Source of the DNA: Candidatus Dormiibacterota bacterium
Lineage (GTDB): Bacteria; Chloroflexota; Limnocylindria; Limnocylindrales; CSP1-4
Direction: 5' to 3'
Length of the DNA: 64,000 nucleotides
NCBI GenBank assembly: GCA_035631615.1
Contig: DASQIK010000027.1
Span: forward strand, 63,446-127,445
Under the pieces are notes generated by a model. It was not told the origin of the DNA, searched no databases, and saw nothing but the letters and a program-made list of their open reading frames with translations. Positions 8,967 through 29,093 of this stretch are shown piece by piece (positions within the stretch are counted from its first letter, which is position 1; each line of letters starts with the position of its first letter). The position numbers were made by a program, and so were the translations under genes.

Positions 8967-9154
8967 GGTCGACGGACTCGGCGGGCAGCACCCGTGCGTC
9001 CCGTCGATGACGGTGGCGCCGACGCAGGACAGGCGAGTCGGAACGGCCGGACCTTCTGCCTACACGATCGGGTCCGATGGTCGGGCTGTTGCCAGAACGC
9101 CCCCGCCCATAAGGTCCAGTGAGCGTCGAGCGCACACCGGTCGGCGGCTTCAAC

Positions 9155-9232
9155 CGAAATAGCACACCCGTCGCGAGGCGGGGCCGCAAAGCCACGGGAC
9201 TCCCCGAGGAGTTAGCCGGGTTGCCGAAAGGG
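9155..9232 (+). ncRNA. candidate c-di-GMP-I (GEMM) riboswitch in the 5' leader of the GH16-like gene
   Basis: 'CCGAAAUAGCACACCCGUCGCGAGGCGGGGCCGCAAAGCCACGGGACUCCCCGAGGAGUUAGCCGGGUUGCCGAAAGGGAG' has a P1 hairpin CCCGUC-GCGA-GGCGGG (GNRA loop), then 'GCCGCAAAGCC' and a 3' 'AGCCGGGUUGCCGA'. These parallel Vibrio Vc2 'GGGCAAACC...GAAA...GGGACGCAAAGCC...AGCGGGGUUACCGA'. A near-identical copy sits at 29005..29085. Confidence 0.55.
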
Positions 9233-9240
9233 AGCATCGA

Positions 9241-10638
9241 ATGCCCTCTCTGCGCGCGCTTGCGCGGCCATTTCAAGGTCCGCGCCACGGTTCGACTCGA
9301 CACTCCCGGTTCGGCCGCGGCGCGGGGCGAATCCTCGCGGTCGCCGGCATGGCCCTGCTCGTGAGCCCGCTCACACTCCACGGCCCGCTGACCCCGACCC
9401 TGGCAATGACGCCCGGTTCGGCCGCCGCGGGAGTCCGGGTCCTGGTCACCGGGACGAACTTCGCGCAGCGAAGACTGGTCCAGCTCACCTGGGATGGATC
9501 GACCGGCGGCATGCCGACCCTGAACACCGGGCGAGATGGCCAGTTCGCCGCGACCATGATCGTCCCGTACACCGCGCCGGGGGCGCATACCCTTGGCGCG
9601 TTGATGGTCCAGACCAGGTCCGCCTTGCCAAGCACCGTGAGCCCCGCCTCCCAGATCGTCCTGGCGTCCGAGACGTTCACGATCACGACCGACGAGGCGT
9701 CTGCGGATCCAAGCGTGCTGCCCACCATCGACCCTGGCCCGACACCGGACCCGACCTTCATGCCGGATCCCACGGCGGCGCCGCTTCCCACGCCGACGCT
9801 CGAGCCGACCGTTACGCCCGCTCCAGATCCGACCGCCCGCCCGACGGCCGCGCCGACCGCCAGGCCGGCGCCCAAGCCCACCCCGCGTCCCACCCCCCGG
9901 CCCACGCCCAGGCCGACGCCTCCGCCGAGTGGCGGCGTCCCGCCGATGCCAGCGGCCGACCTCCTGCGGAAGAACTTCGCGGATGGGTCCCTGTGGCCGT
10001 TCCGCGTCGTCGACTACCCGAATGACCATCCGACCGACCCGATGTCCTGGGCGTGCGATTACAAGACCGACAGCAGCGTGGTCTCGGTCCATGATGGCTA
10101 CCTCCACCTGCGGGCATACCCGAAGGCCGGCGGCCGCTGGAACTGTGGCTTCGTCTCGACGGGCATGGACGCGAACGGACACGGCGCGTCGTTCAGCGTC
10201 AGGTACGGCTACGTGCAGTTCGCCGCCAAGATCAATGTCGGTCACGCAACGTGGCAGGCCCCGCTGTGGCTCCTCAACACGGTCACGGGCTGGAACGCGG
10301 CCGAGATCGACGTGGCCGAGGTCATCGGCGGCCGGCTGACGTACAACCTCCACGGCACGACCGAGCGCCGGGTGGGCTCGGTGGCGCCCCCGAGCAACAT
10401 GGCCTCCGCGTGGCACGTGTTCGGCGTTGCCAAGACGAGCAACCACATCACGTTCGTCATGGACGGCAGGGTCATCGGCCGCTGGTACGGCTCGATGACC
10501 GACCCGATGGCGCTGCTCGCCGACAGCAAGGTCGGCATCAAGTGGGACAACCTCTACCCGAACAGCACCACCCCGTCGCCCACGTGGGTCAAGCTCGCGT
10601 GGATCACCGTCTCCTCGCACATCCCCAGCGGCCTCTAG
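9241..10638 (+). CDS. secreted GH16-like (concanavalin-like glucanase) protein with Pro/Thr-rich linker
   Basis: RBS AAAGGGAG precedes the ATG. The N-terminal hydrophobic segment 'ILAVAGMALLVSPL' is followed by a ~70 aa PT-rich linker (PTPDPT...PRPTPRPTPRPTPPP). The C-terminal domain carries 'WQAPLWLLNTVTGWNAAEIDVAEV' (GH16 ExDxxE-like). It is paralogous to 29094..30428. Confidence 0.7.
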   Translation: MPSLRALARPFQGPRHGSTRHSRFGRGAGRILAVAGMALLVSPLTLHGPLTPTLAMTPGSAAAGVRVLVTGTNFAQRRLVQLTWDGSTGGMPTLNTGRDGQFAATMIVPYTAPGAHTLGALMVQTRSALPSTVSPASQIVLASETFTITTDEASADPSVLPTIDPGPTPDPTFMPDPTAAPLPTPTLEPTVTPAPDPTARPTAAPTARPAPKPTPRPTPRPTPRPTPPPSGGVPPMPAADLLRKNFADGSLWPFRVVDYPNDHPTDPMSWACDYKTDSSVVSVHDGYLHLRAYPKAGGRWNCGFVSTGMDANGHGASFSVRYGYVQFAAKINVGHATWQAPLWLLNTVTGWNAAEIDVAEVIGGRLTYNLHGTTERRVGSVAPPSNMASAWHVFGVAKTSNHITFVMDGRVIGRWYGSMTDPMALLADSKVGIKWDNLYPNSTTPSPTWVKLAWITVSSHIPSGL

Positions 10639-10769: not shown

Positions 10770-12248
10770 TTGGCCATTGATCGACATTCGGGCGCCCGTC
10801 TGCTCCTCCTCGTGCTGTCGGTGGCAGGCCTCGCCGGTCTCGCCCTCGCTGCGCGACCACGCAAGGATTCCGTGCCGGTTCTCACCCCGCTCCCGTCCAT
10901 CTCGGTGCCTGCGCCTGCAGCGAGCGATCTATTCGTCTCAACGTCGGGGCACGACGGGTCGGCCGGCTCAGCCTCCGATCCCCTTGCATCCCTCCAGGCC
11001 GCGGTCGATCGCGTCGCGCCTGGAAGCACCGTGTGGGTAGAGCCCGGCAGGTACCAGGGCTTCGGGCTCCGTCGCGGCGGTCTCTCGGGCGCGCCCATCA
11101 CCATCGCGGCCACGACCCCGGGGACCGCCGTCATCACGCCCTTCGGTGTCGACTCCACGATCGACCTCGTCGGCGCTTCACACGTCGATCTGATCAACCT
11201 CGTCGTCGAGGGGCCGACATCCGGAATGCTGAGCGCCGTCTACCTCGAACGGAGCAGCGCGATCACGATCGAGGGCTGCACCCTCCGGGGGACGACCGGC
11301 GGTTTCGGCGTCCAGGTCCGCTTCTCGTCGGACGTGACCATCCGCGACAACGACATCCTCCACAACGCGATGGGAGTGCGCCTGTATGGCGAGGGTGACC
11401 CGAGTTCCGTGCATGACGTCCTGATCGAGGACAACTGGATCCACGACAGCGATTCGATGGTCGTGAACGATGCTGCTCCGAACAACGACTACGGCGCAAA
11501 TGGGATCGTCTGGCACAAGGTCACCGGGACCACTATCGCCCGCGGGAACAAGCTCTGGGCGAACCGCGCGGTGAGCCACGACTACGGATACGACGGCGGT
11601 GCCTTCGAGATCTGGGGCTCGAGCAACGCCCAGATCGTCAGCAACGTCGCCTGGGACAACGAAAACGTGATGGAGACCGGGTCGGATGGGCCGGACTGCA
11701 CGAACATCTCGTTTCTCAGAAACGTGGCGTACGCGCCCAGCTTCGGCGTCGGCCTGATCCTTCGGTGTGCCCGTGACTCGCTCATCGCAAACAACGTCCT
11801 CGACCACCTTCAGTCGTACGCGTTCGAACTCAGTGATCGCTCTGGTGGAAATCAGTTCGCGACATCGATCGACGGCCTCAGGATCGAGAACAACATCGTG
11901 GTCGGATCGCTCGCGTACGCCATTCGCAACGCCCTCCCGGCGACCGTCGTCCTCGACTACAACGTCCTACCGCCTCGACGGGCCATCGCGTCGTTCCCGA
12001 ACGGTGTGGTCAGCGTCTCGGTCGCGGCGTTCACGCGCGCCACTGGCCAGGATTCCCACTCGATCGCGGTCGATCCGGCATTCGTGGCCGCCTCCGCGCA
12101 CGACTACCGGCTTCGGCCCGGATCGCCGGCGATCGACCGCGGCACCGTGGTGATCCCGGGAGAAACGTTCCTCGGTGCCGCGCCGGACATCGGGGCCTAC
12201 GAGGGCGCCGCTGCGCTCCCCTCTCCGTCGCCCGCCGGATCCGGCTGA
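10770..12248 (+). CDS. secreted right-handed parallel beta-helix repeat protein (pectate-lyase/NosD-like fold)
   Basis: TTG start after RBS GAGAAGGA; signal peptide 'ARLLLLVLSVAGLAGLALAA'. Repeated 'VxIxDNxIxxN' beta-helix turns ('VTIRDNDILHN', 'VLIEDNWIHDS', 'LRIENNIVVGS'). Confidence 0.65.
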   Translation: MAIDRHSGARLLLLVLSVAGLAGLALAARPRKDSVPVLTPLPSISVPAPAASDLFVSTSGHDGSAGSASDPLASLQAAVDRVAPGSTVWVEPGRYQGFGLRRGGLSGAPITIAATTPGTAVITPFGVDSTIDLVGASHVDLINLVVEGPTSGMLSAVYLERSSAITIEGCTLRGTTGGFGVQVRFSSDVTIRDNDILHNAMGVRLYGEGDPSSVHDVLIEDNWIHDSDSMVVNDAAPNNDYGANGIVWHKVTGTTIARGNKLWANRAVSHDYGYDGGAFEIWGSSNAQIVSNVAWDNENVMETGSDGPDCTNISFLRNVAYAPSFGVGLILRCARDSLIANNVLDHLQSYAFELSDRSGGNQFATSIDGLRIENNIVVGSLAYAIRNALPATVVLDYNVLPPRRAIASFPNGVVSVSVAAFTRATGQDSHSIAVDPAFVAASAHDYRLRPGSPAIDRGTVVIPGETFLGAAPDIGAYEGAAALPSPSPAGSG

Positions 12249-13483
12249 CGCAGGCGTCCGACGGCGCGAGCCGCAAGGGTCCGGATCGTCTGCACGACCA
12301 TGCGGGCGGCGGGCCTTGGGTCATCGCGCGCGACCCACGCTCGCTCCTCGACGCCCCGGAGGCTCGAGAGGTAGCCGCGAAGCCCGAGCTCTCCGCGCCA
12401 AGCGAGCTTGATGGAGGTCGCGAGATCCTGGTCCTCCACCAGCCAGCGCCGGCCTTCGGGAGCGCGGCCGCCGGGCACGGACTGACCGGTCAGGTCCAGG
12501 TACAGCGCCCGCACGACATCGAGGCCGTTCCGCGCGACGAACAGCCGGAATGAGCTGCCGATGCGCGGATTGACGTCGAGCAACTTGTAGCGGCCGTCGC
12601 GCGCGTCGTACCGGAAGCCGAGGTCGACCATGCCGCGGTAGCCGAGATCACCGAGAAACCGCACCGCGAGCTCACGGACCACCTCGTTGCTCACCACCAC
12701 GCCGAGCGTCGTCGCGCCGGTGCGTGGCGGCGCCTGGCGGATCTTCTGGCCGACGATTCCGATCGGGCTCGCACCATTCCGATCGAAGTAGCCGTTGAAC
12801 ATCCAGATGGAGCGCGCATCGCCGGGGATGAACTCCTGAAGCATGAGATTCGGCTCGCCGGGGTCTTCGATGCGGTCGTACAGCTCGATCGCCTCGTTCC
12901 GGGTGTGGGCGACGGCCACGCTCACCGCCCGGGGGCGGCGCCGCAGGATTCGCGGATCCATGCTCTTCAGGACGATCGGGTAGCCGAGCTCCTCGGCGCC
13001 GGCCAGCATCTCGTCGCGTGAGGTCGGAAACCGCGCCGCCGGCGTTGGGATGCCGGCCCGCAGGCACAGGTTGTGCAGGCGGCCTTTGTCGCTGAGCTCG
13101 AGCGGCAGGCCAGCGGGCTGATCCGGGAGCAGGAACTCCCGTGGCAGCTGGGCGAAGTTGTCGGCCACGAACAGGGCGGCCACGTCGTCAGCGGCAATCA
13201 GCAGCGCTCGCGTGCCGATCCGGGCGGCGACGCGCCGGAGCAGCTCAAGGATCGCCACGTCCCCGGCCTCCGGCGGCGGCATCCCCGTCCGGCTTGCCAC
13301 GTACCGGCTGCGGGCGGGCGGAGCGTCCGGGTCTCGCGTCGCCAAGTGCACGCGAACCCCGAGCCGGCCAAGCGAGCGGGCGATCGCGAGCGTGCCGTGC
13401 TGGAAGGGGTCGCTGGTGAGCTTGAACACGGCGACCGGCGTACCGGCATCGACGAGTGGGCTGGTGAGACGAGCGTCGATCAA
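12197..13483 (-). CDS. ATP-grasp domain ligase
   Basis: Pre-ATP-grasp 'AVFKLTSDPFQHGTLAIARSLGRLGVRVHLA', then 'YPIVLKSMDPRI...LMLQEFIPG...' and 'YRGMVDLGFRYDARDGRYKLLDVNPRIGSSF' (ATP-grasp C-terminal motif). TTG start 2 nt after the comB stop. Confidence 0.7.
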   Translation of the reverse strand: MIDARLTSPLVDAGTPVAVFKLTSDPFQHGTLAIARSLGRLGVRVHLATRDPDAPPARSRYVASRTGMPPPEAGDVAILELLRRVAARIGTRALLIAADDVAALFVADNFAQLPREFLLPDQPAGLPLELSDKGRLHNLCLRAGIPTPAARFPTSRDEMLAGAEELGYPIVLKSMDPRILRRRPRAVSVAVAHTRNEAIELYDRIEDPGEPNLMLQEFIPGDARSIWMFNGYFDRNGASPIGIVGQKIRQAPPRTGATTLGVVVSNEVVRELAVRFLGDLGYRGMVDLGFRYDARDGRYKLLDVNPRIGSSFRLFVARNGLDVVRALYLDLTGQSVPGGRAPEGRRWLVEDQDLATSIKLAWRGELGLRGYLSSLRGVEERAWVARDDPRPAARMVVQTIRTLAARAVGRLRQPDPAGDGEGSAAAPS

Positions 13484-13485
13484 GT

Positions 13486-14205
13486 TCAGCTGGTGGCGCC
13501 CGTGCGCACGACCACCTCGCTGTTGCGCATCTCATAGGTGGTCGTGACGTCGGTCACGTGCTCGAGGATGAACGACAGGTCGTCGAGCTGCCCGGAGTCG
13601 CGCAGGTAGCGCGCGCTCTTGCCCTCCGTGATCGCGGCTGCCGGCGCGTCGCGCCAGGTGTCCACCACTCGGCGCGTCTCGTCATCGGCGTCATAGCCGG
13701 CGTCGATGAGCGGGCCGGCGATCCAGGCGCAGCAGAGCTGGTCCTCCTCGCGGAACTCGCCGCGTGTGCCGGCGCCGAGGAGCACGACCTCCGGGGGTCG
13801 GGCTCGCACGAGTTCCGCGGCCTGCGCCTCCCAGTTCCGCAGGCAGGCAAGGAACGTCGTCGGATGGGCCGCCGCCGCGGTCCGGAGGAGGCGCGTCCCC
13901 GAAGTCGACAGGAGAATCGCCGGGCGACTCGGGTCGCCGGCGCGAGCGATCGCCGCGGGGCTGTTGTTCAGGTCGAAGCCGTAGGGCATGTTCCCGCCGA
14001 GCTCCCCGACCAGCAGCGGGTGCTCGAGGCGAGCCTGGAGCTCTGCGACCTCGTCCAGGTTCGCGGCCACGAAGCACCGACGCCCACCCGCGACCGCGGT
14101 GATCGCCGTGGTCGTGGAGCGGATGACGTCGACGCCGACCACGACCGCGTCACGCGCGTAGCCGCGGAGCTCCGCGAGGTAGACCTCGATCCTGACGGAC
14201 GGCAT
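13486..14205 (-). CDS. comB: 2-phosphosulfolactate phosphatase (ComB family)
   Basis: 'VVVGVDVIRSTTTAITAVAGG' matches the ComB signature (VIDVLRAS/TT). Length 239 aa; sits 3 nt downstream of comA. Confidence 0.75.
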   Translation of the reverse strand: MPSVRIEVYLAELRGYARDAVVVGVDVIRSTTTAITAVAGGRRCFVAANLDEVAELQARLEHPLLVGELGGNMPYGFDLNNSPAAIARAGDPSRPAILLSTSGTRLLRTAAAAHPTTFLACLRNWEAQAAELVRARPPEVVLLGAGTRGEFREEDQLCCAWIAGPLIDAGYDADDETRRVVDTWRDAPAAAITEGKSARYLRDSGQLDDLSFILEHVTDVTTTYEMRNSEVVVRTGATS

Positions 14206-14208
14206 CCC

Positions 14209-15024
14209 TCAGGCGTCGCTCGGGCTGGGGGCAGGCGGCCGCAGGTTCGCGTGGCCGAACGCATCCGAGTGCAGCCCGCGCCGGTAGATCTCCACCCGCA
14301 GGAGCTCCTCGAGGCGCACGTTGCACAGCCGCACCTCCGGACCGAAGTGATTGAGCAGCGCGAACTGGCTGGGCTTGTTCGGGGCCTCGAACATCGTGAT
14401 CCCGAACCCGAACGCCTCGACGAAGCGCTCGGCCAGCGCCGTGTTGAGGTTGCCGTCCATGTCGAACAAGCCGACGCCCTTTGCGCTCTCGCGCGCCTCC
14501 ACGACCAGCTCCTTCGCGCCCGCATCCAACCAGCGTCTGCCCTGCTCGACCAGCTCCTCGGCGACGTCGTTTGTGAACGCGCCGCCGTGCTTCTTGCCGA
14601 GCTCGAACTGGAAGTCGAGGCCACGCGCCGCGGCCAGATGCGCCACCGTCTCGGGTGCGAGCCGCATGTCAGTGAAGCCCTCGCCACACTCGAACCTGTC
14701 GAACCCGATCTCGGCGCAGAGGTCCAGATATGCCTCGAGCTGGCCCTGTGCGACGGCCACCTCGAAGGGGCCACCACCGGTGACGGTGGGCACGCCGTGC
14801 TTCTTTGCCGCCGCGACTTTCGCCCGGGTTGCGCCCTCGTCAGCAATGATCCAGCACGCCATCGAGACCTTCAGGATCGAGATCAGGTGGTGGCTCTGCG
14901 CCAGATGGGATTCGAGGGTGACCGGGTCATAGCCCGGGTCGAACGGGCTTGTCGATGGCTCGAGGCTGCGCACGCCGATCGCGCGCAGGTAGCTGGCGAG
15001 GTAGCCATGGGCATCAGCCGTCAT
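14209..15024 (-). CDS. comA: (2R)-phospho-3-sulfolactate synthase (ComA family)
   Basis: 'AKELVVEARESAKGVGLFDMDGNLN...GITMFEAPNKPSQFALLNHFGPEVRLCNVRLEELLRVEIYRRGLHSDAFG' aligns with M. jannaschii ComA 'ADYVIIEGRESGKGIGLFDKEGKV...[48 protein letters not shown]'. Confidence 0.8.
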   Translation of the reverse strand: MTADAHGYLASYLRAIGVRSLEPSTSPFDPGYDPVTLESHLAQSHHLISILKVSMACWIIADEGATRAKVAAAKKHGVPTVTGGGPFEVAVAQGQLEAYLDLCAEIGFDRFECGEGFTDMRLAPETVAHLAAARGLDFQFELGKKHGGAFTNDVAEELVEQGRRWLDAGAKELVVEARESAKGVGLFDMDGNLNTALAERFVEAFGFGITMFEAPNKPSQFALLNHFGPEVRLCNVRLEELLRVEIYRRGLHSDAFGHANLRPPAPSPSDA

Positions 15025-16310
15025 TCCTCCCGTCCCTCCTGAACCCGCGGGCGTCGAGCCTGGATCTGTGGCCGAATGATTTCACGGTAGATGACCGGCA
15101 GCATCGGCAGCACCTCGAGGCCCATCGCGACTGCCACGCCGATCCCGAGGCCGCGGAGGCCGCCGGCGGTCGCGCCGAGGTATCCGCCGAGGATCTCGAT
15201 CAGGGCCCCAAGCGCAACGAGTCGAGTCGCGGACGAGAGGTGGCCTCGAACGCGCTGGATGGTGATGTACTGGCCCTTGAATACGCCGCCGATGACGGTC
15301 AGCGGCAGGGCGAAGAGGGCTTCCGTGCCCGCGTCCGAGTAGCCGCGTCCGAAGATTCGGAGGACGATCGGCCCGAGGATCCACAGCGCCACGGCACTGC
15401 CGACGCCGGTCACGATCGAGAGCCGGAGCGTCAGCCAGCCCCACCTGGCAAGGGATCCGGGCTCGCGCGACGCTTCCGCAAACAGGATCCACGTGAATGC
15501 CACCTGGACGAAGGCGGCGATGCCGACGAGCTGCCACGCCAGGAAGAAGCCGGCATTCGAGCTGGCCGAGAGCGCGGTGACTGCCACGATCGGCATCGCC
15601 CAGCCCGGAACCTGGATCGCGAGGTTCAGCATGTGATGCTGCAGCGACGCGAGCCACTGCTGGCCGAGAAACTCCCAGTGGAACGGGTAGGCGGCTCGCA
15701 GGTTGCCACGACGCCCCGCGATCAGGGCGAGGACGACGAGCGAGAGCCCCGTCGAGATCACCCACGGGGCGATCATGCCGAGCCCGGCCGAGGCGAGCGC
15801 GAACGACGCAAACATTGCGAGCAACAGGAGGCGCAGCAGGGCCGCGAGCACGTTCCGGAAGAGTTGCAGCCCACTGCGCAGGAGACCGATCAGCGCCTGG
15901 TCGAGGACGAGACTGGCGGCAGTCACGCTCGCGCCGAGGGTCACGAGGACGATGGTGATGAGCGACTCGCGAAGCGGCGCGAAGTCCACCGACAGCAGCG
16001 GCGCGATCAGGACGAATCCCAGGCCCAGGACCCCGCCGACGGCGGCCGAAGCGACGAGCGACGTCGTGACGATCGCGATCTCGCGCCCCGGATGTGCCGG
16101 AATCTCACGGATGAGCAGCGTGCCCAGGCCCATCGCCCCGACCGCACCGACCAGCGACATGCCCGAGGTGACGGCGGACGCGAAGCCGACATCGGACTGG
16201 CTGAAGGTCCGACTCGCGATCAACCAGAAGACGAACCCGACGCCAGCCGTGAGCAGCTGGCTGAGGACCAGCGACGTGCTCGATGCGAGAAAGTCACGGA
16301 CCCGCGGCAT
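15021..16310 (-). CDS. polysaccharide biosynthesis protein, Wzx-like flippase (MOP superfamily)
   Basis: 429 aa polytopic membrane protein from Met 'MPRVRDFLASS...'; the ORF-finder N-terminal extension was rejected. Its stop overlaps the comA ATG (ATGA). Confidence 0.7.
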   Translation of the reverse strand: MPRVRDFLASSTSLVLSQLLTAGVGFVFWLIASRTFSQSDVGFASAVTSGMSLVGAVGAMGLGTLLIREIPAHPGREIAIVTTSLVASAAVGGVLGLGFVLIAPLLSVDFAPLRESLITIVLVTLGASVTAASLVLDQALIGLLRSGLQLFRNVLAALLRLLLLAMFASFALASAGLGMIAPWVISTGLSLVVLALIAGRRGNLRAAYPFHWEFLGQQWLASLQHHMLNLAIQVPGWAMPIVAVTALSASSNAGFFLAWQLVGIAAFVQVAFTWILFAEASREPGSLARWGWLTLRLSIVTGVGSAVALWILGPIVLRIFGRGYSDAGTEALFALPLTVIGGVFKGQYITIQRVRGHLSSATRLVALGALIEILGGYLGATAGGLRGLGIGVAVAMGLEVLPMLPVIYREIIRPQIQARRPRVQEGREE

Positions 16311-17074
16311 CAGGCGCTCCCTGTGCCGGTCGAGTACGTGACCCGCCGGTACACGACGTCCGGCTGCGAGGCGACGTAGACGAGGACCTCGAGTGGCGGT
16401 CCGCCCCGGGCTGGCTGGGGCACGAGCGTGGTCCATCGCTCCCCCATCGCGACCGTGATCGCAGGGAACGACCTCTGGATGATACCGCCGACGGTCACGT
16501 CCACCCGGTACGTCGTCGTCGCGAGCTCCTGGTTGTCGAGACCGATCTTGACCATCCCCGACCCTGCCGGTACGACCCACAGGGCCGAGAACGGCTCCGA
16601 CGGCTGCTTGACACCGGCGCGTGCGATGAGCAGCGAGACCATCATCAGGACGCATGCGGCGACCATCGCAAGCGCCTGCCCGTTCGTCGGCCTGACCCAC
16701 GACTCGCGACGGAGCGGCGGCAGACCGCGACGGGCAAACACGGCGATGGCCAGCAGGAGGACGGCGACGAGCCCGAGCCAGGCGGTCCGGCTGAGGCCGC
16801 CGGGGATCAGGTTGAGGACGAGCCCACCGATCGCGATGCAACCGAGGCTCAGCGCCGAAGCGACGAGGAACAGGTCCAACCGCCGCAGGGACTCGACCGG
16901 GCGGCGGGTGATCGCAAGGACGATCCCCGGGAGAATCAGCACGACCAGCGCCACGGAGGCCAGCACGAACGCGATGATCCCGGCGATCGACGCCGCGAGG
17001 ATCACGGCGAGTGCGACCGCGCCGGTCAGCGCCAGCACCACCAGCGCGGTGCCGGGGGGCGTTCTACCGAGCAC
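16310..17074 (-). CDS. membrane protein (DUF1616-like: N-terminal TM helices plus C-terminal beta-rich domain)
   Basis: Four predicted TM helices followed by a soluble ~90 aa domain. Its stop overlaps the flippase start (TGATG). Confidence 0.5.
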   Translation of the reverse strand: MLGRTPPGTALVVLALTGAVALAVILAASIAGIIAFVLASVALVVLILPGIVLAITRRPVESLRRLDLFLVASALSLGCIAIGGLVLNLIPGGLSRTAWLGLVAVLLLAIAVFARRGLPPLRRESWVRPTNGQALAMVAACVLMMVSLLIARAGVKQPSEPFSALWVVPAGSGMVKIGLDNQELATTTYRVDVTVGGIIQRSFPAITVAMGERWTTLVPQPARGGPPLEVLVYVASQPDVVYRRVTYSTGTGSA

Positions 17075-18980
17075 CGGCGAGCCGCCTCACGTCGTACAGC
17101 TGGATGTCGCCGCTGTCATAGATGCGATCGACCCGCGGGACGCTGTCCCACTTGGCAAGCACAGTCGCGAGGATCGGCGTGGCGTGCCGTCGCTCGAAGA
17201 TCTCGCCCTCCTCGTAGTAGAACGGCACCAGGGGGAGACTCGAAGCCAATCGACGGTCGATCAGGATGTAGTCGATGCGCGCCGCCTTGATTCGGGCGAT
17301 CTCGAGCGGCCCGACGACCGGCGATAGGAAGATCTGCCAGGTTTCGACGTGGCCCGATGTGTAGAAGACCACGTCGGCCTGCCCGTACGAACCCAACAGG
17401 AGCCGATTGACCCGATCCCCGGCAACCCGCCGATTCGGGCCAAGGACGGCAAGCGTCCAGCCGGCCGCGGCGATGCTCTCGTTGTCGATCGACCGCGAAT
17501 CCGCGCCGACGAGGTATGGCCCCGGGAACCTCGTGGCCGGCGCCGTGCCGATCACCGCGCCGCCAAGGATGGCGAGGCACACGATGGCCACGAACGCGCC
17601 CGTCCACACCTGTTGCGACCGGGCCGGCGAGCCACGGATGGTCCACCGAACCGGATCGCGGGTGCCGCGGACGCGCCCCGCGATCGTCTCGGCCGTTGCG
17701 ATCACGCCGAGCGCGACGACGAACGAGAGCCCGAGGAACACGAAGCCGAGGCTTCGTCCGGCGGCCTCGCTGCCCGTAGGCGTGAGTCGCGCGACCAGGC
17801 TCAGGGGATAGGCGAGGGCAAGCAGCCCGAGCAGCAGGGCGAGGGAGTTGTCTCGATACCGCCGGATGAGCGGTGCCAGGCCGATCGGGATCGCCAGGGT
17901 CAGGAGCGCCGCGGTCCCCAGGCCGACCGCCCGCTCCCACACCGGCGCCACCTGGCCCGTCGCCGAGACGAAGGGCGTGCGGCCAACGCCCGTCGTCACC
18001 AGCCGTATGGCCTCGTTGATGGCTGCGGCAATCGGTGGCGCAAGGTAGCCCACGACGACCGGGCCCGCAAACACCAGCCAGAGGGCGGTGGCGCTGAGCA
18101 TGAGGGCGGTCGAGAAGATGATCCCCCATCGTCGGTACCGATCTCTTCGATGCACGATCCGGTTGACGACGATCCAGCCGACCAGGAGGGCAGCCGCCCC
18201 GTAGGTCGACACATGGTGGGTGATCGCCAGCGTCGCCGAGCTCGCCGCCAGCGCTGCGGCAAGGAGGACTCCGCCTCCGCGCTGAGCGCGGATGGCCGTG
18301 ATCAGGAGCACGACCGGGACGAGGGGAAGCGCGAGTGTCTCGTAGGAAAAGCCCGAGTCGAAGAACGTGAAGTTCGGGTTGAGCATGTAGATGGCGGTCG
18401 CCAGTCCGGCGACGCGCTCGGACGACGATGCTTCCCGATACAGCGCGAACAGGCCGATCGCGAACAATATTCTCGCGAACGCGAGCACGACGGCTGCGGC
18501 CGTGAACGGATCGACCCCGCTGATCTGGACCACCGCCGCCGTGACGATCTCGAGGCCCGGGAAGACCGGGCTGACGGGGAGGAGCGGGTTCGGCGTAAAG
18601 AGGTGGCCGGTGCTCAGAATGTCGGTGATCGTGCGGAGGTGGAGCAGCGCGTCGTAGTTCGTGAAGCCGGCGGGCGAGCTGACGAAGTGCACGACCTCGA
18701 GCACGAGACCGAGCACGAGCACGAGACCGACACGCTCCGCGGTTCCGGGTGCCTTCGCAGTCAGGCGCACCGTGATCGGGGCAGCGATCAAGAGGAGCCC
18801 GATCCAGAACAGCGGCTCGGCGTACTGGAACCCGGCGCCGACGAGGGCGAAGGACGAGGAGACAGCGACCACGCCGGCCGCGGCGACCAGCGACAGCGCC
18901 GGAAGCCAGCCCCAGCCGCGCGCGCGGTACGCCGCGGGATCGGGGCGCCCGAGCGGCGAATTCGAGCGCAGGTCTACCAC
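17064..18980 (-). CDS. large polytopic membrane protein, putative GT-C-type glycosyltransferase
   Basis: 638 aa with at least 12 hydrophobic segments across the N-terminal ~450 aa and a ~170 aa C-terminal soluble domain, as in GT-C/oligosaccharyltransferase-like enzymes. Overlaps the downstream gene by 11 nt. Confidence 0.5.
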   Translation of the reverse strand: MVDLRSNSPLGRPDPAAYRARGWGWLPALSLVAAAGVVAVSSSFALVGAGFQYAEPLFWIGLLLIAAPITVRLTAKAPGTAERVGLVLVLGLVLEVVHFVSSPAGFTNYDALLHLRTITDILSTGHLFTPNPLLPVSPVFPGLEIVTAAVVQISGVDPFTAAAVVLAFARILFAIGLFALYREASSSERVAGLATAIYMLNPNFTFFDSGFSYETLALPLVPVVLLITAIRAQRGGGVLLAAALAASSATLAITHHVSTYGAAALLVGWIVVNRIVHRRDRYRRWGIIFSTALMLSATALWLVFAGPVVVGYLAPPIAAAINEAIRLVTTGVGRTPFVSATGQVAPVWERAVGLGTAALLTLAIPIGLAPLIRRYRDNSLALLLGLLALAYPLSLVARLTPTGSEAAGRSLGFVFLGLSFVVALGVIATAETIAGRVRGTRDPVRWTIRGSPARSQQVWTGAFVAIVCLAILGGAVIGTAPATRFPGPYLVGADSRSIDNESIAAAGWTLAVLGPNRRVAGDRVNRLLLGSYGQADVVFYTSGHVETWQIFLSPVVGPLEIARIKAARIDYILIDRRLASSLPLVPFYYEEGEIFERRHATPILATVLAKWDSVPRVDRIYDSGDIQLYDVRRLAGAR

Positions 18981-19507
18981 AGTCGTCGTTCTCCGCGAGT
19001 GCCGGCTCGTCCGTCGACGCTGTGACCTCGGACGGAGATCAGTGGGCCTCGCGCGCGTCCAGCCCGGAGGCTCGGTTACCCGGCTCGAAAGACTCCTGCG
19101 TCGGGTTCATGCTCGCGGCGGATGATAGCAAGGGGGCAATCCGACACGCCGGGTCAGTGGTCGGGTAGGCCTATCCCGTGCGATCGCTCGCGGCCCGGGC
19201 CCCCGCGGGGGGAGTCTCGAGTCGCGCGCTGATCGACCTGGGCAGCGTCACGGGCCGACGCCGGCGTTGATCCGTCGAGTCCCCGAACATACTTCGGTAG
19301 GCCGACGGATAGCCAACGCGCCGGGCGACTCGGTAGAGCTCCGTGGCGTCCTCGATCGAACAGGCGATCTGCTTCGCCAATCGCTCGATGTTCGCGCGGT
19401 CGCCGGACAGGAACGCCGCAGGATGTCTGATGGCTTCAACGAGCGAGGACGACCGAGGAAGACGCACGCGACTCTCCCGAGGCTGACCGACCGCGACCGA
19501 TGTTCGA

Positions 19508-20722
19508 ATGAACGTACACCCGGACGGGAACGCGTCGACCTCCCGATATGACTATTGGCGTTCAGACGAAGGTGCGGGCCGGCGCGGTGAAGGGCGACTG
19601 CCGGCGCTCGCCACTCGTGCCATCCGTACACTCGACCTCGTGCTCATCTCGATACTCTCGGCCCAGCGGACCGCGATGCGCGCGCTCCGCCTGCTCGGCG
19701 ACTGGGCAGGATGGTCGAAGGAGACGTACCTCTACCAGCGGGTGAACGAGTACCGTCTGATCTGGGAGCGCGTCGCCATGGCGGAGGGAGGCACGTTCAC
19801 GGAGCTCGCGTCGGACCTCTGGCAGATCGACGTCGGGCACCATCGAGTCCGTGTCCTGAACTACCAGCTTGAATTCGACAATCCTGTGACCCTTGGCCTT
19901 GCGGGTCGCAAGCGGATCGTCCACGGTCTCCTGGGTGCAGCCGGCGTGTCCGTGCCCGAACATCTCGCGTTCACCCTGGAGACGATGGATGCCGCGCGAG
20001 ACTTCGTGGCGAACCATCCGCTTGGGTGCGTCATCAAACCATCCGGTGGATACGGTGGCAGGGGGGTCACCACACATGTCCAGCTGCCCGGCGAGGTCCG
20101 GTCTGCATCCCTGCGGGCGTCGGTCCACGATCCGGAGCTCCTCGTCGAGGCGATGATCCCCGGTGAATCGTTCCGCCTGCTCGTCCTCGAGGGCAAGGTG
20201 GTCGACGCCGTCTACCGGCGCGGGTCGCGCCTGACGGGCGACGGCGTGTCGACGATTCGGGAGCTGCTCGGCGCCGAAACCCCGGTGGACGGGCGCCGAC
20301 GCGATCCCGGGCTCGACGACGACCGGGACGTGAGCTTTACCCTGGTCGCACAGGGCCTCACCCTCGAATCCCGGCTCGACGCAGGCCGGGTCGTGCTGTA
20401 CCGGAGCACTGACCAGGCTCGGAAGCGCTACGCCGAGGTGCGGACCGTGTACACGGATTCGGCGCGGGATCTGATCTGCGAGTCGATCCGGTCCGACGCC
20501 GAGGCTGCCGCCCGTGTGATCGGGTCCGACTTCCTCGGCGTTGACGTCATCACGCTGGATCCCTCGGTCCCGCTCAGTGAGAGTGGCGGTGTGATCAACG
20601 AGGTGAACACCACGCCGGCGTTGCACCACCACTACGACATGACGCGCGAGCCGTATCCCGAGGCAGCCGTGCTCGCCATCGAGGCCCTCCTGAGGCGGCC
20701 TTCCGCCCTCGTCGATTCGTGA
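19508..20722 (+). CDS. ATP-grasp domain protein (cyanophycin-synthetase/RimK-like ligase)
   Basis: 'CVIKPSGGYGGRGVTTHV' (ATP-grasp Gly-rich loop), 'LLVEAMIPGESFRLLVLEGKVV', and 'GVDVITLDPSVPLSESGGVINEVNTTPAL'. The leader has locally lower GC. Confidence 0.6.
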   Translation: MNVHPDGNASTSRYDYWRSDEGAGRRGEGRLPALATRAIRTLDLVLISILSAQRTAMRALRLLGDWAGWSKETYLYQRVNEYRLIWERVAMAEGGTFTELASDLWQIDVGHHRVRVLNYQLEFDNPVTLGLAGRKRIVHGLLGAAGVSVPEHLAFTLETMDAARDFVANHPLGCVIKPSGGYGGRGVTTHVQLPGEVRSASLRASVHDPELLVEAMIPGESFRLLVLEGKVVDAVYRRGSRLTGDGVSTIRELLGAETPVDGRRRDPGLDDDRDVSFTLVAQGLTLESRLDAGRVVLYRSTDQARKRYAEVRTVYTDSARDLICESIRSDAEAAARVIGSDFLGVDVITLDPSVPLSESGGVINEVNTTPALHHHYDMTREPYPEAAVLAIEALLRRPSALVDS

Positions 20723-20729
20723 GATTCTG

Positions 20730-21908
20730 ATGCGCCCTGAACGAGCGGCGATTGCACCGCACCGCCTACGCGTCGCAGCTGTCGGCGACGTGATGCTGGG
20801 CCGTGAGGTGGGCGTCCATTTCGCATTGTCGCCCGGCGACTTTGCGATGCCGGATATCCGGGCGGCCTTCGCCGGAGCAGACGTCGTGCTGGCCAATCTC
20901 GAGAACCCGGTTGCGAGCACTGGCCGACCCGACCCGGCGCAGGACCCGCACGTCACGTTTCGGGCGGCACCCGAGACCCTGTCCGTGCTCAAGGGGATCG
21001 GCGTGAACGTCGTGGCGCTGGGCAACAACCACATGCTCGACTACGGCGAGGCAGCCCTCATCGAGACGCTCGAGCGGCTGGACGCCGCCGGCATCCGGCA
21101 TGTTGGGGCCGGCCGCGACTACGAAGAGGCGAACGCCCCGGTGCTCCTTGAAGTTCGCGGCCGAAGGATCGCGATCCTTTCCTATGCGTTCATCTACTCC
21201 GCGAACACACGAATGGCTTCACGGACGAGGTCGGGCATCAGCGATCATCGCCTCGACCGGATCCTGCGGCGCATCAGAGGCCTGGTTGCCGAGGGTTGCT
21301 GCGTCCTCGTCACGGCGCACTGGGGGTTCGAATACCGGTTCCATCCACTGCCGTACCAGATGCGCCAGGCACGCGCGATGATCGACGCCGGCGCACGTAT
21401 CGTGCTCGGACACGGGCCCCATATCCCGCAGGGCATCGAAGCGTACAGGGGACGGGACATCGTCTACAGCCTGGGGAACTTCATCTTCGACGAGCCGTAT
21501 ACGTACGCGAAGCGGAGCTTCATCTACCACGCGGAGATCGACGATGACGGGGCGACCATGAACCGACGGATGACGCCGGTCCTGCTCCCGCACCATGTCC
21601 CGTCCCTGATGGCGCACGACGACGCTGAGCGCATGCGGGCGCTCGTCGAAGCACTCAGTCGACGGTACGGGCGAAGGAGCAGTGCGTTCTGGCGGGACCA
21701 CAGCACGCGCTATCTCAACGAGCTCGGCGGACGTGTCGTGCGCAACCGATCGCTCAAGTACCTTCGGGTGCCGCCGATGGGGTTCTACCGGGACGTCGGG
21801 GCGACGGGCATCCTACGCATCGTGCAACGAGCGGTGACGGTTCTGCGACCTGGTGGAACACGTCGGGAATCAGGTGGCTCTCGCCGGCGACCGGAGGGAA
21901 TCTCGTGA
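20730..21908 (+). CDS. CapA/PgsA family protein (poly-gamma-glutamate synthesis-associated metallophosphoesterase fold, PGA_cap)
   Basis: 'LRVAAVGDVMLGREV...VVLANLENP...GVNVVALGNNHMLDYG...ILSYAF...VTAHWGFEY' matches the CapA family pattern. Confidence 0.75.
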   Translation: MRPERAAIAPHRLRVAAVGDVMLGREVGVHFALSPGDFAMPDIRAAFAGADVVLANLENPVASTGRPDPAQDPHVTFRAAPETLSVLKGIGVNVVALGNNHMLDYGEAALIETLERLDAAGIRHVGAGRDYEEANAPVLLEVRGRRIAILSYAFIYSANTRMASRTRSGISDHRLDRILRRIRGLVAEGCCVLVTAHWGFEYRFHPLPYQMRQARAMIDAGARIVLGHGPHIPQGIEAYRGRDIVYSLGNFIFDEPYTYAKRSFIYHAEIDDDGATMNRRMTPVLLPHHVPSLMAHDDAERMRALVEALSRRYGRRSSAFWRDHSTRYLNELGGRVVRNRSLKYLRVPPMGFYRDVGATGILRIVQRAVTVLRPGGTRRESGGSRRRPEGIS

Positions 21909-22987
21909 CCCGGCAAGGCAGCGTGCTGTCGGCCTGGCTACGGGCCACGCGGCACGTGCCCGCGACCTCGATGGCGCGGTTCGCCCGGCCGCAGCCACCC
22001 CGTTTCCCGGCGATCGACGCCCACACGCACCTGAACTCCGTGCACGCCTACGGCTGGCGGGGTCGACCCGTCGGCGACGTGATCCGGGCACTCGATCGCG
22101 CGGGCGTTCAAGGCCTCGTGAACCTCGACGGCGGTCACGGCGAGGCCCTGTCAGCGGAGATCGCCCGAGTCCAGACGCCGAATCCGGATCGGATCGTGGT
22201 CTTCGCCGGGGTCGACCCGGCCGCCTGGAAGCACGACGCACGCTTTGGCGCGATGGAGGCGGCACGTCTCGAGGACTCGGTTCGTCGCGGCGCGAGGGGG
22301 CTGAAGATCTGGAAGGACGTCGGCCTCCATGCGCGCGATCCCGACGGCCGCCTCGTCGCGCTCGATGACGAGCGTCTCGCGCCGATCTGGGAGACCGCGG
22401 GCGCCCTGGGCGTCCCGGTCCTCATTCACGTCGCCGACCCGAAGGCGTTCTTCGAGCGCCTGGACCGCAACAACGAGCGCTGGGACGAGCTGCGCCGCCA
22501 CCCGGATTGGCATTACTCCCCGATCCGGACGGCGCCGGATGGTCCCGGCTTCCCCAGCCACGACGAGCTGATCGGCCAGTTCGAGCGGATGGTGCAGCGC
22601 CACCCCGGGACGAGGTTCATCGGCGCCCACCTGGCCTCGAGCGGCGAGGATCTCGCCCGCTTGTCGGACATGCTCCGGAGGCTGCCAAACCTGTCGGTCG
22701 ACATCGCGGCGCGAATCAATGAGCTCGGGCGACAGCCCGCGGAGGCGAGGTCGTTCATCGAGACGTTCCAGGATCGCGTCCTGCTCGGCACGGACGCGGG
22801 GCCAGATCCGCGCTGGTATCCGATCTACTTCCGGTTCCTCGAAACCGCCGCGCACGACATGAACTACTCCGTCGGCTACCGCGCACCCCAGGGCAACTGG
22901 CGGATCGACGGGTTGAGCCTGTCCGACCGCGCGCTCGTGAAGGTGTATGCCGAAAACGCCTTGCGACTGATCCGATTCGGCCCGTAG
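21905..22987 (+). CDS. amidohydrolase family (TIM-barrel metal-dependent hydrolase, amidohydrolase_2-like)
   Basis: 'FPAIDAHTHL' metal-binding HxH near the N-terminus, plus 'VLIHVADP' and 'GTDAGPD'. GTG at 21905 overlaps the CapA stop; the alternative ATG at 21971 is more likely. Confidence 0.7.
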   Translation: MTRQGSVLSAWLRATRHVPATSMARFARPQPPRFPAIDAHTHLNSVHAYGWRGRPVGDVIRALDRAGVQGLVNLDGGHGEALSAEIARVQTPNPDRIVVFAGVDPAAWKHDARFGAMEAARLEDSVRRGARGLKIWKDVGLHARDPDGRLVALDDERLAPIWETAGALGVPVLIHVADPKAFFERLDRNNERWDELRRHPDWHYSPIRTAPDGPGFPSHDELIGQFERMVQRHPGTRFIGAHLASSGEDLARLSDMLRRLPNLSVDIAARINELGRQPAEARSFIETFQDRVLLGTDAGPDPRWYPIYFRFLETAAHDMNYSVGYRAPQGNWRIDGLSLSDRALVKVYAENALRLIRFGP

Positions 22988-24094
22988 GTGACGGCCACAT
23001 CGCGCCCAAGGCTGCTCTTCGTCAGCGCGCGATTCACGCCCGATGTCGGCGGCATCGAGACGCACGTCGCCGAGGTGGCGCCGCGCCTCGTCGAGATGGG
23101 CTTCGACGTCACGATCCTGACCACGGACCGGACCGGCACGCGAGCGTCAAGCGAGAAGACCAACGGGGTCGAGGTCGTCCGCGTCCCGGCATACCCGAGG
23201 TCGCGCGACTACTACCTCGCCCCGGCGCTGGTGGGCGAGATCCGACGCCACCCGTCCGACCTCATGCACCTGCAGGGCTACCACACCCTGGTGGCGCCCA
23301 TCGCGATGGCCGCCGCAGGGTCGCGCGGGCTCCCGTATGTCGTGTCGTTCCACAGCGGCGGACATCCCTCGAAGCTGCGCAACCGGGCCCGGGCGCTCCA
23401 GCGCCTCCTCCTCCGACCGGGCCTTGTCAGAGCCGACCGTCTGATCGCCGTATCCCGCTTCGAGCTGGACCTCTTTCGGCGGGATCTCCGGCTGTCTGCA
23501 TCACGGTTCAAGCTCATCAGGAACGGGAGCTCGCTGCCGGCCCCGCTGACGACGCGGCGCCCCGGCGCCGGACTGGTCGTATCGATCGGGCGGCTGGAGC
23601 GATACAAGGGCCACCGGCGCGTCGTCGAGGCATGGGGCGCCGTGCTCCGTGAGGTGCCACACGCGCGCCTGCGGATCATCGGCAGCGGGCCCGACGAGGG
23701 TCCCATCCGCGCGCTGATCAGGTCGTCAGGGATGGAGGATCGGATCACGCTGGAGTCGATTCCCGGGGATGATCGCCAGGCGATCGCGGACGCGCTGGGC
23801 GAGGCGAACCTGGTCGTGCTCTTGAGCGACTACGAGGCCCATCCGGTCGCGGTCATGGAGGCGCTCGCGGTCGCGACCCCCGTGCTCGTCGCTCGCACCA
23901 GCGGACTCACGGAGCTCGTCGAGGACGGCCTCGCGGCGGGCATCGATCCGTCGGCGTCGATGGCCCAGGTCGCAGCCGGCGTCGTCGCGGAGCTTCGCCG
24001 GCCGCGCGTGGTCGCGACACCCCTGCCGACGTGGGACGACTGTGCCGTCCAGCTGCGCGACCTCTATCACGAGATCCTCGAGGGCCGGCGGTGA
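22988..24094 (+). CDS. glycosyltransferase family 4 (GT-B fold)
   Basis: 'LLFVSARFTPDVGGIETHVAEV', with C-terminal 'VLLSDYEAHPVAVMEALAVATPVLV' (EX7E-like). Confidence 0.75.
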   Translation: MTATSRPRLLFVSARFTPDVGGIETHVAEVAPRLVEMGFDVTILTTDRTGTRASSEKTNGVEVVRVPAYPRSRDYYLAPALVGEIRRHPSDLMHLQGYHTLVAPIAMAAAGSRGLPYVVSFHSGGHPSKLRNRARALQRLLLRPGLVRADRLIAVSRFELDLFRRDLRLSASRFKLIRNGSSLPAPLTTRRPGAGLVVSIGRLERYKGHRRVVEAWGAVLREVPHARLRIIGSGPDEGPIRALIRSSGMEDRITLESIPGDDRQAIADALGEANLVVLLSDYEAHPVAVMEALAVATPVLVARTSGLTELVEDGLAAGIDPSASMAQVAAGVVAELRRPRVVATPLPTWDDCAVQLRDLYHEILEGRR

Positions 24095-25317
24095 GGATCC
24101 TGATGCTTGCCCAGTGGTATCCGCCGATCCTCGGCGGTGAGGAGCTCCACGTGGCGAACCTGTCGAAGGCACTCGTCGCTCGTGGCCACGAGGTCATCGT
24201 GGCGACGCTCGAGCAGCAGGGCCTGCCGGCCGAGGAGTTCGATGGCGACGTTCGTGTCGTCCGGGTCGCCGGTGGCCTGCAGCGCTTCGAGGCGCTCTTC
24301 GCCGACTCCGCACGCCGGTCGGCGGCACCCATCCCGGACCCGCTCTTGACCATCGCGATCAACCGGATCGTCAGCCGCTTCCACCCGGACGTGATGCACG
24401 CCCACAACTGGCTCGTGCACGCCGCACTACCGATTCGCGCCGCCCGCGGCATCCCGCTCGTGCAGACGCTGCACGACTTCAGCCTTGTCTGCGCCCAGAA
24501 GGTGCTCCTCCGAAATGGGCGGGCGTGCTCCGGTCCAGGCCCAATCAAGTGCCTGACCTGCACCGCAGACCACTACGGAGCCATCAAGGGCCCGATCACG
24601 ACCGTCGCCAACTGGGCCGATGGCCTCGCTCAGCGCCGGCTCGTGGATCGGTTCATCGCAGTGAGTCGCGCCGTCGCGGACGGGACCGGGTTGACCGGCG
24701 AGCGCTCCGAGGTGGTGCCGAACTTCGTGCCGGACGAGACGCCACCGCCGCCGGATGTCGGGATGTACCAGTCGCAGCTCCCCTCTGTGCCGTACTTCCT
24801 GTTCGTCGGGGCCCTCGGTCGCCTGAAGGGCCTCGAGGTGCTCCTGCGCGCCTACCAGACCGACGGATCGCTGCCGCCGCTGGTCCTGATCGGCTATCGA
24901 ACGCGCGAGACTGACGAGCTGCTGCGCGACCTGCCGGCGAACGTGATCGCGCTCGGACAGTGGCCACATCCTGCGGTGCAGCTCGCCTGGACCGGCGCTA
25001 TCGCGGGCCTCCTGCCCTCGATCTGCCAGGAGGCCTGCCCGACCGTCGCAATCGAGGCGATGCGCGCAGGCAGGCCGGTGATCGCCAGCCGGCTCGGCGG
25101 GTCGATCGATCTCGTCGAGGACGGTGGGACAGGCATCCTCGTCCCACCCGAGGATCGGGTGGCCCTCCTGGGCGCCGTCCGCGAGCTGGCCGATCAGCCG
25201 GGCCTCGTGGCAACGATGGGAGCCCGCGCCCGCGAGCGGTCCGCCCGTTACACCGCCTCGGCGGTCGTTCCCCGCATCGAGGCGGTCTACAGGGCGGTGA
25301 CTGCCGGGGCGCGGTAG
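24091..25317 (+). CDS. glycosyltransferase family 4 (GT-B fold)
   Basis: 'ILMLAQWYPPILGGEELHV' and 'CQEACPTVAIEAMRAGRPVIASRLGGSIDLVEDGGTG'. GTG start overlaps the upstream stop (GTGA). Confidence 0.75.
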   Translation: MRILMLAQWYPPILGGEELHVANLSKALVARGHEVIVATLEQQGLPAEEFDGDVRVVRVAGGLQRFEALFADSARRSAAPIPDPLLTIAINRIVSRFHPDVMHAHNWLVHAALPIRAARGIPLVQTLHDFSLVCAQKVLLRNGRACSGPGPIKCLTCTADHYGAIKGPITTVANWADGLAQRRLVDRFIAVSRAVADGTGLTGERSEVVPNFVPDETPPPPDVGMYQSQLPSVPYFLFVGALGRLKGLEVLLRAYQTDGSLPPLVLIGYRTRETDELLRDLPANVIALGQWPHPAVQLAWTGAIAGLLPSICQEACPTVAIEAMRAGRPVIASRLGGSIDLVEDGGTGILVPPEDRVALLGAVRELADQPGLVATMGARARERSARYTASAVVPRIEAVYRAVTAGAR

Positions 25318-25610
25318 CTGTCAGCAAGACTGCCACCGCATGGTGGTTTGCAATGTCGGTGGGATAGCTTGATGCGGTCCAGAGCCGTCTTGTGGAGGTC
25401 GGTCCGGTTAGGCTGAAAAACCTGTGTCGCCTGGACGCACCACGCCACGTTCGGAGCCTCGAATCGAGTTCCGTTGCGCCCTTAGTCCGGTGTTGACGCA
25501 GTACTTTTGGCGGTGCAGACTCGGCGTCCCTGAGGCACCTGCAGGTCCCACAGGCAGCACTTATCTCACTCGGTTTTCTCGTCGGTTCTTGGAGGAAGAC
25601 GGCACAGGGT

Positions 25611-29085: not shown

Positions 29086-29093
29086 GTGTTGAC

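Follow-up and report, generated by a model that had tools for sequence, protein, structure and literature searches.

A window of 64,000 nucleotides (the whole stretch analysed here, from contig DASQIK010000027.1) of a Dormibacterota metagenome-assembled genome is best described as carrying two paralogous, riboswitch-gated genes of glycoside hydrolase family 16 (GH16) that bracket an exopolysaccharide (EPS) cluster, with a canonical GH16 gene devoid of riboswitch beside them. From the reading of the open reading frames (ORFs) and their translation, the two paralogs are ORF A (ATG at 9241 to 10638, + strand, 465 aa) and ORF B (GTG at 29094 to 30428, + strand, 444 aa). The third gene, ORF C (27660-28565, - strand, 301 aa), adjoins B. 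The products of A and B are probably translationally gated, exported and catalytically competent endo-glycanases processing the EPS of the cluster that they bracket; the substrate, the direction of the switch and the ligand are the parts of this reading that we infer. Neither the fold nor the catalytic motif nor the RNA family is of a new kind. The most informative features are the conserved coupling between the riboswitch and the gene and the A/G difference at position 20 of the aptamer.

Riboswitch leaders and their coupling to GH16 genes

A scan of the whole window with Rfam detected exactly two aptamers of the cyclic di-GMP (c-di-GMP) family c-di-GMP-I (RF01051, GEMM-I; gathering score of 35 bits). 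The first one, in leader A, covers the positions 9151-9228 (+ strand, 62.4 bits) and the second one, in leader B, the positions 29002-29082 (+ strand, 49.8 bits). For both genes, 12 nt separate the end of the aptamer from the start codon. The Shine-Dalgarno (SD) sequence is GGGAG in leader A (9230..9234, + strand; 1 nt past the aptamer sequence CCGAA and 6 nt before the ATG) and GGAG in leader B (29083..29086, + strand; directly past the aptamer and 7 nt before the GTG). No Rfam match was found upstream of C, in agreement with the initial annotation, which had noted the lack of a GEMM-like leader before the third GH16 gene.

The same aptamer is present upstream of homologous genes in other contigs, namely in the loci L001 (9556-9633, 62.8 bits), L002 (2375-2454, 60.4 bits), L004 (318-394, 60.8 bits), L010 (5000-5076, 61.7 bits), L011 (61.7 bits), L012 (850-924, 58.7 bits) and L013 (9915-9989, 56.2 bits). 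The contig of L006 ends within the aptamer, of which only the 3' half is present. All 10 loci with available upstream DNA display the pairing of riboswitch and GH16 gene, down to a protein identity of 38%: the protein of L013 is only 38% identical to A, yet an aptamer lies directly upstream of its gene. In every locus, the SD and the start codon are found at 12-15 nt or less from the end of the aptamer. The stems P2 and P3 show compensatory changes across five loci, and the loop is GCGA.

A scan for intrinsic terminators around A and B detected none, and a scan for sigma-70 promoters in the same regions gave nothing usable, as expected at 70% G+C, the value of the window. Because the gap of 12 nt is too short for a terminator and none was detected, the riboswitch control of A and B is most likely translational. 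A full-text literature search found no paper on riboswitches in Dormibacterota and, among the hits listed, no description of a GEMM-GH16 pairing.

Architecture and catalytic domain of the GH16 proteins

The two paralogs share the plan that was initially annotated, which consists of a hydrophobic leader, an Ig-like domain, a Pro/Thr-rich (PT) linker and a C-terminal GH16 domain. In A, the basic N-region and the hydrophobic leader (residues 1-~55) are followed by the Ig-like domain (~50-150), the PT linker (153-235) and the GH16 domain (236-465). In B, the N-terminus MSFWDGTRW precedes the hydrophobic leader, the Ig-like domain, a PT/PA linker and the GH16 domain (residues 215-444). The C-terminal domains of A and B are identical at 167 of 230 positions (73%) and the N-terminal domains at ~34%. 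The G+C content at third codon positions is comprised between 0.89 and 0.94 in the domains of ORF A, and is of 0.77 and 0.89 in those of ORF B. ORF C contains a signal or anchor sequence, a short PT/PS linker and a laminarinase-like domain.

All three proteins match the Pfam model PF00722 above its gathering score of 22 bits, with 29.6 bits for A, 24.4 bits for B (both marginally above) and 74.1 bits for C, which confirms C as the canonical GH16 of the initial annotation. The motifs quoted there were also found: GWNAAEIDVAEV in A, GWNSAEVDVAEV in B and GNGLWPAFW...EIDAMEV in C. The catalytic motif of A is E355-I-D357-V-A-E360 (10303..10320, + strand), that of B is EVDVAE (residues 334-339, nt 30093-30110, + strand) and that of C is EIDAME (residues 181-186, nt 28008-28025, - strand). 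GH16 active sites are known in two forms, the beta-bulge form EXDXXE and the beta-strand form EXDXE (PMC6827312). By their sequences, EIDVAE and EVDVAE are unremarkable examples of the beta-bulge form. With phmmer, GWNAAEIDVAEV of A was aligned onto GWPTCGEIDIMEM of the Thermotoga laminarinase 3azx, where EIDVAE falls residue for residue on EIDIME. None of the residues E355, D357 and E360 varies among 54 homologs, whose identities span 25-87%. His371, located after the catalytic strand and kept in both A and B, is invariant in a 14-sequence alignment and is a putative counterpart of the conserved GH16 His.

The fold was examined with an AlphaFold2 model of A built from the 54-sequence alignment. 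The predicted local distance difference test (pLDDT) is above 90 for the residues 50-150 and 232-465, and the residues 154-230 are disordered. In this model, the C-terminal domain is predicted as a beta-jelly-roll superposing on GH16 laminarinases. The top 50 PDB matches obtained with Foldseek for this domain are all GH16, and the best ones are the laminarinases 3b01, 2hyk and 3atg (E ~1e-12, target-normalised TM-score 0.70-0.76, 17-22% identity). The best structural matches of A, at this identity of 17-22%, are members of GH16_3. For C, the best solved relatives are the beta-1,3-glucanases 9vmv, 3atg and 2hyk (E ~1e-20), and its sequence makes it a plausible member of GH16_3. A and B share with the GH16 laminarinases (3azx from Thermotoga maritima, 2hyk from Nocardiopsis and 3atg from Cellulosimicrobium) the beta-jelly-roll, the EXDXXE strand and the preceding W-x-A-x-W-L strand. 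They differ from them by the N-terminal Ig-like domain and the PT linker, by Pfam scores barely over the threshold and by divergent C-terminal strands, in which 'LLADSKVG...' replaces 'LNLAVGG'.

The initial annotation had regarded the context of the motif as atypical and proposed that the paralogs may be lectins. This idea is not supported because the triad is kept, and a non-catalytic lectin is not expected to retain it; the motif itself is the standard EXDXXE, aligned to 3azx and with its triad invariant in the 54 homologs. More broadly, the paralogs could have given up hydrolysis and serve as lectins, or could be transglycosylases that remodel the polymer without cleaving it. The marginal Pfam scores, a C-terminal third without the 'LNLAVGG' stretch seen in C and the existence of transglycosylases within GH16 (PMC6827312) would fit such a role. 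We consider it improbable, as neither the nucleophile nor the helper Asp nor the acid/base varies in the 54 homologs, and the three align with a solved laminarinase and form a standard EXDXXE motif (PMC6827312). Such a triad would be of no use to a lectin, and nothing speaks positively for transglycosylation, a possible activity. Catalytically competent endo-glycanases are the more probable products of A and B, and their sequences are compatible with hydrolysis as with transglycosylation.

The Ig-like domain, modelled alone, is a generic Ig-like sandwich with an AlphaFold2 pLDDT of 86. Its Foldseek neighbours are weak (CARDB, neocarzinostatin, KIR and intimin), and B has a sub-threshold match to the NCBIfam model 'PGS family Ig-like'. 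No match to IPT/TIG (PF01833) was found by Pfam in A or B at E up to 1. Of the domain first described as Ig/TIG-like, the Ig-like beta-sandwich is thereby retained from the model and Foldseek, and the TIG assignment is not. The linker, first given as ~70 aa, is longer in A, with 83 aa (31 Pro and 15 Thr), and shorter in B, with about 59 aa. The homologs have equivalent PT linkers. The linker is translated in the right frame, since two domains, each with support of its own, lie on either side of it in one ORF, so it is not the translation artefact of a wrong frame that had been envisaged.

The start of B deserves some precision. The mechanical ORF extends back to 28971, and the NCBI protein HYK95046.1, annotated as 'glycoside hydrolase family 16 protein [Candidatus Dormibacteraeota bacterium]', is the protein of ORF B begun at the internal ATG 29217; it is encoded on a 221-kb MAG contig. 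The NCBI protein is identical to residues 42-444 of ORF B. This start costs ORF B 41 residues, including the MSFWDG motif and the basic N-region. The starts at 9241 and 29094 are favoured over the NCBI start at 29217 because of the placement of the SD and because the MxFWDG start is common to other loci; the start at 29094 is also supported because a 444-aa member of the protein cluster has the same one. The N-terminus M-x-(F/Y)-W-D-G-x-(R/K)-W is found directly after the riboswitch in B (29094-29125), L002 (~2467), L012 (~938) and L013 (10001). Most full-length members display this WDG start, and then a hydrophobic stretch, the Ig-like domain, the PT linker and the GH16 domain. A and its nearest relatives (P0161 and P0165) begin otherwise, with a basic N-terminus (MPSLR...). 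For the N-terminal FWDGxxW motif, a DUF2510-like identity was considered and rejected, as Pfam gives it no support.

Direction of the switch and nature of the ligand

The reference for the leaders is Vc2, the translational OFF switch upstream of tfoY in Vibrio cholerae, which belongs to the same aptamer family and whose stem P1 closes the three-way junction (PMC11705072, PMC9262584). In Vc2, the ligand-dependent formation of P1 is coupled to the masking of the ribosome-binding site (PMC11705072, PMC9262584), and we propose that the leaders of A and B may function likewise. The top P1 pairs of Vc2 are G14-C93 and C13-G94, and the formation of P1 in the ligand-bound state represses translation (PMC11705072). 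In the pilM riboswitch, P1 only forms with the ligand (PMC9262584). The leaders of the window possess the CG/CG pairs equivalent to the top of P1 in Vc2. The 5' flank of leader A contains the sequence GCUUC (9147..9151, + strand), which is complementary to the SD GGAGC and represents a candidate lower half of P1, as an anti-SD. GCUUC is conserved in the A-type leaders and can pair with the SD GGAGC below an internal loop. The helix between GCUUC and the SD is the minimum-free-energy fold in L001 and L010. In L004 and L010, GGAGC is changed to GAAGC with the pairing retained, and in L002 the helix is longer. The leaders differ from Vc2 in that the SD directly adjoins the aptamer rather than being distant, the tetraloop is GCGA and most copies have an A at position 20.

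Several results speak against the masking of the SD by P1. The GCUUC-SD helix is only weakly significant in the shuffling test, with p values comprised between 0.006 and 0.23 in the A-type loci and between 0.006 and 0.9 overall; the test fails for leader B and L012, where this helix is absent or limited to 3-4 bp. RNAalifold prefers a hairpin between the SD and the start codon instead. The computed accessibility of the SD is similar in the unconstrained and in the aptamer-constrained ensembles. Taking both sides together, an OFF switch is somewhat favoured over an ON switch. An ON model based on an internal CUCC anti-SD in P3 was rejected, this sequence being absent in L001, L004 and L010.

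We also observe that the nucleotides UCCUUUUGGGAUGG at the M-x-(F/Y)-WDG start are conserved and can pair with AAGGA in the SD region, which makes them a possible element of the expression platform.

The residues of the c-di-GMP-I riboswitch that contact the ligand are G20, A47 and C92 (PMC6140456; numbering of Vc2). G20 reads one guanine of c-di-GMP, and the riboswitches for cyclic GMP-AMP (cGAMP), known as GEMM-Ib, have an A at this position. In the cmscan alignment, position 20 is an A in leader A (nt 9161) and a G in leader B (nt 29012), while A47 and C92 are present in both leaders. The set G20/A47/C92 is complete in leader B, and leader A departs from it at G20. A20, the GEMM-Ib feature displayed by leader A, is also found in all seven other complete aptamers (L001, L002, L004, L010, L011, L012 and L013), and therefore the ancestral leader of the gene family would be an A20 variant. 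The junction J2/3 is CGCAACGCC in leader B versus CGCAAAGCC in the others. Leader B has the canonical GCAAA / GAC, where the A-type leaders have GCACA / GCC.

The effect of position 20 on the ligand has been described in other riboswitches. The G20A variant of Vc2 is bispecific, with a Kd of 53 nM for c-di-GMP and 120 nM for cGAMP (PMC6140456), and A20 alone may give a bispecific binding, as in Vc2 G20A and Cbe 1-2 (PMC6140456). Conversely, the A20G change turns Gmet_0970 from cGAMP-selective to c-di-GMP-selective (PMC6456294). Leader A resembles the GEMM-Ib 3'3'-cGAMP riboswitches of Geobacter (Gs1761 and Gmet_0970) by the presence of A20 in a GEMM-I scaffold; the Geobacter representatives differ in acting on transcription, as ON switches, and in lying upstream of genes for cytochromes, pili and polysaccharides. 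Among the genes of the 64-kb window, no GGDEF, EAL or CD-NTase was detected. Judging from the aptamer sequences, the A20 leaders could sense cGAMP or both ligands, and leader B looks like a c-di-GMP-specific version. The stronger proposal, in which the A20 leaders are genuine 3'3'-cGAMP or dual cGAMP/c-di-GMP sensors and the G20 leader B is a c-di-GMP-specific derivative, is for the moment doubtful. Workers in the field do expect cGAMP riboswitches outside Geobacter (PMC8835794).

Gene neighbourhood, relatives and role of the enzymes

The cluster for polysaccharide biosynthesis extends between A and B over roughly 15 kb (12197..27670). It encodes an ATP-grasp protein, ComB, ComA, a Wzx-like flippase, two DUF6541 membrane proteins, two glycosyltransferases of family GT4 and two of family GT2. 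The paralogs do flank a glycosyltransferase cluster, as had been proposed. A cyanophycin-synthetase-like ATP-grasp protein, CapA and an amidohydrolase are also encoded there. ComA and ComB (sulfolactate synthesis) stand beside the two ATP-grasp ligases, CapA and the amidohydrolase (13486-15024 and 12197-13483 on the - strand, 19508-22987 on the + strand), a combination of annotations that hints at a polymer decorated with acids or amino acids.

Gene A is preceded by a gene for a NAD-dependent epimerase and followed by the gene of a secreted right-handed beta-helix protein (10770..12248, + strand), related to NosD, Pel9A-like proteins and disaggregatase. A beta-helix gene follows the A-type gene in the window and in L001, L002, L010 and L011. 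It may be co-transcribed with A, under the riboswitch, and its product is a second candidate for a polysaccharide-cleaving enzyme. The order A, beta-helix, ATP-grasp, ComB, ComA, Wzx, DUF6541 is repeated in L001, and parts of it are found in L002, L010 and L011.

This organisation recalls ExoK and ExsH of Sinorhizobium meliloti, which are likewise GH16 endo-glycanases encoded with genes for Wzx/Wzy-type heteropolysaccharides. Both glycanases reportedly cut or trim succinoglycan, and we know of no riboswitch control for ExoK. The likeness is a functional analogy only and the proteins are not equivalogs: the NCBIfam ExoK model gave no match for A or B, C reaches 33 bits for a cut-off of 350, and for EglC A matches weakly, with 25 bits for a cut-off of 700, and C also matches, all of these scores being far below the cut-offs.

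In the mechanism that we propose, the hydrophobic leader would export or anchor A and B, as predicted from the sequence, and the Ig-like domain with the disordered Pro/Thr linker would hold the GH16 jelly-roll off the cell. By analogy, the product of the neighbouring cluster is most likely the polysaccharide that A and B, with C and the beta-helix protein, cleave or trim. Each paralog would be gated at the level of translation by its own GEMM-I cyclic-dinucleotide riboswitch, in which the formation of P1 induced by the ligand would hide the ribosome-binding site, on the model of the Vc2 OFF switch. The enzymes would be made when the second messenger falls, with loosening of the matrix or dispersal, and would be shut off when it is high.

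Part of the neighbourhood data weighs against a role tied to EPS. The homologs of L012 and L013 are located outside EPS clusters, while the riboswitch is constant, and L013 has a GH2-like and a GH26 gene as neighbours. Furthermore, the nearest solved structures of A are only 17-22% identical to it, and the EPS is only a putative substrate. The contexts of L012 and L013 would agree with foraging beta-glucanases that digest foreign polysaccharides (fungal, plant or neighbouring biofilm glucans) for carbon, the adjacency to the EPS cluster being incidental. The laminarinases as closest structures, the typical beta-1,3-glucanase character of C and the GH2_N2-domain protein encoded upstream in the window point in the same direction, and the genes of chitin utilisation in Vibrio are reportedly under cyclic-dinucleotide control, which would be a precedent. 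However, no sugar transporter or catabolic genes adjoin A or B, the A-type genes are syntenic with EPS biosynthesis genes in four independent contigs, and two paralogs bracket one cluster. We therefore regard foraging as unlikely and retain the processing of the EPS made by the neighbouring cluster as the probable function.

Other genes are found around these loci. A GH2_N2-domain protein (~900 aa) and a large alpha/beta-hydrolase (Hydrolase_4) are encoded both in the window (730-5303, + strand) and in L013 (1468-6808). A DUF1839 gene is present in both L013 and L001 (1-877 in L001). Judging from the GH2_N2, Hydrolase_4 and DUF1839 genes, the conserved neighbourhood of the riboswitch-GH16 gene may extend further. 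Just downstream of B, a gene for a YdjM-family membrane hydrolase (30651-31283, + strand) precedes that of a PAS-repeat protein with a class III adenylate/guanylate cyclase domain (30962-32878, + strand). The latter is a second nucleotide-signalling enzyme beside the cyclic-dinucleotide-controlled gene B.

The A/B branch of GH16 is, from the database searches, rare, small and divergent. A word-indexed search with a single sequence among 5.8 billion clusters recovered 12 proteins, and a full HMMER scan of 1.84 billion representatives recovered 19 clusters below 1e-30 and 54 below 1e-10. The profile search gave some 20 homologs at close range (60-87% identity) and some 35 at a greater distance (30-42%). 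No close relative was found among the GTDB species-representative genomes, where the only match is an Actinomycetota sequence (L003) with 28% identity and without riboswitch. The metagenome scan recovered L002 alone. Stand-alone catalytic domains of 230 aa were rejected as a separate architecture, several of these matches being truncations due to contig ends or gene calls.

Some of the distant homologs are borne by phage-like contigs. These proteins of 291-295 aa are 30-40% identical, have an intact triad and are encoded near terminase, integrase, Prim-Pol and Gp80 genes (L014 6001-6888, L017 6001-6876, L018 6001-6888 and L021 3001-3885). An N-terminal signal peptide and a PT linker are present in two out of three (P0042 and P0196, and not P0192). 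One phage homolog was found in IMG/VR at 100% identity. In PHROGs, neither the two paralogs nor their phage homologs have a family, and no riboswitch was found upstream of the phage-borne homologs. From their sequences, they may be depolymerases aimed at the same polymer as A and B.

The distant homologs with signal peptides on phage-like contigs would also fit enzymes aimed at a surface polymer of the host. In this case A and B could remodel the cell-envelope or sheath polysaccharide of the producer itself, in the manner of autolysins and independently of the cluster, and the MxFWDGxxW segment with the hydrophobic stretch does suggest a membrane anchoring. Nothing is known of the envelope glycans of the phylum and no cell-wall genes are adjacent. 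The phage homologs would be equally well explained by an EPS that the neighbouring cluster produces for the cell surface. An autolysin-like role is accordingly very improbable, and the polymer of the cluster stays the preferred target.

To our knowledge, Candidatus Dormibacteraeota has few or no cultured members, and therefore the way in which it regulates its surface polymers has hardly been described. The conserved pairing of riboswitch and GH16 gene offers a concrete, testable handle on the coupling of second messengers to matrix turnover in soil bacteria. The enzymes A and B define an uncharacterised branch of GH16 with phage-borne relatives and might have polysaccharide specificities not yet described. 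Further work is best directed at the conserved coupling and at the A20/G20 split, the A/G split between two paralogous leaders of one genome being a natural experiment on ligand specificity. If the two types of leaders do respond to different ligands, one Dormibacterota genome would tie two cyclic dinucleotides to a pair of paralogous matrix glycanases, one at each end of a single EPS cluster, and cGAMP signalling through riboswitches would reach beyond Geobacter into an uncultured soil phylum.

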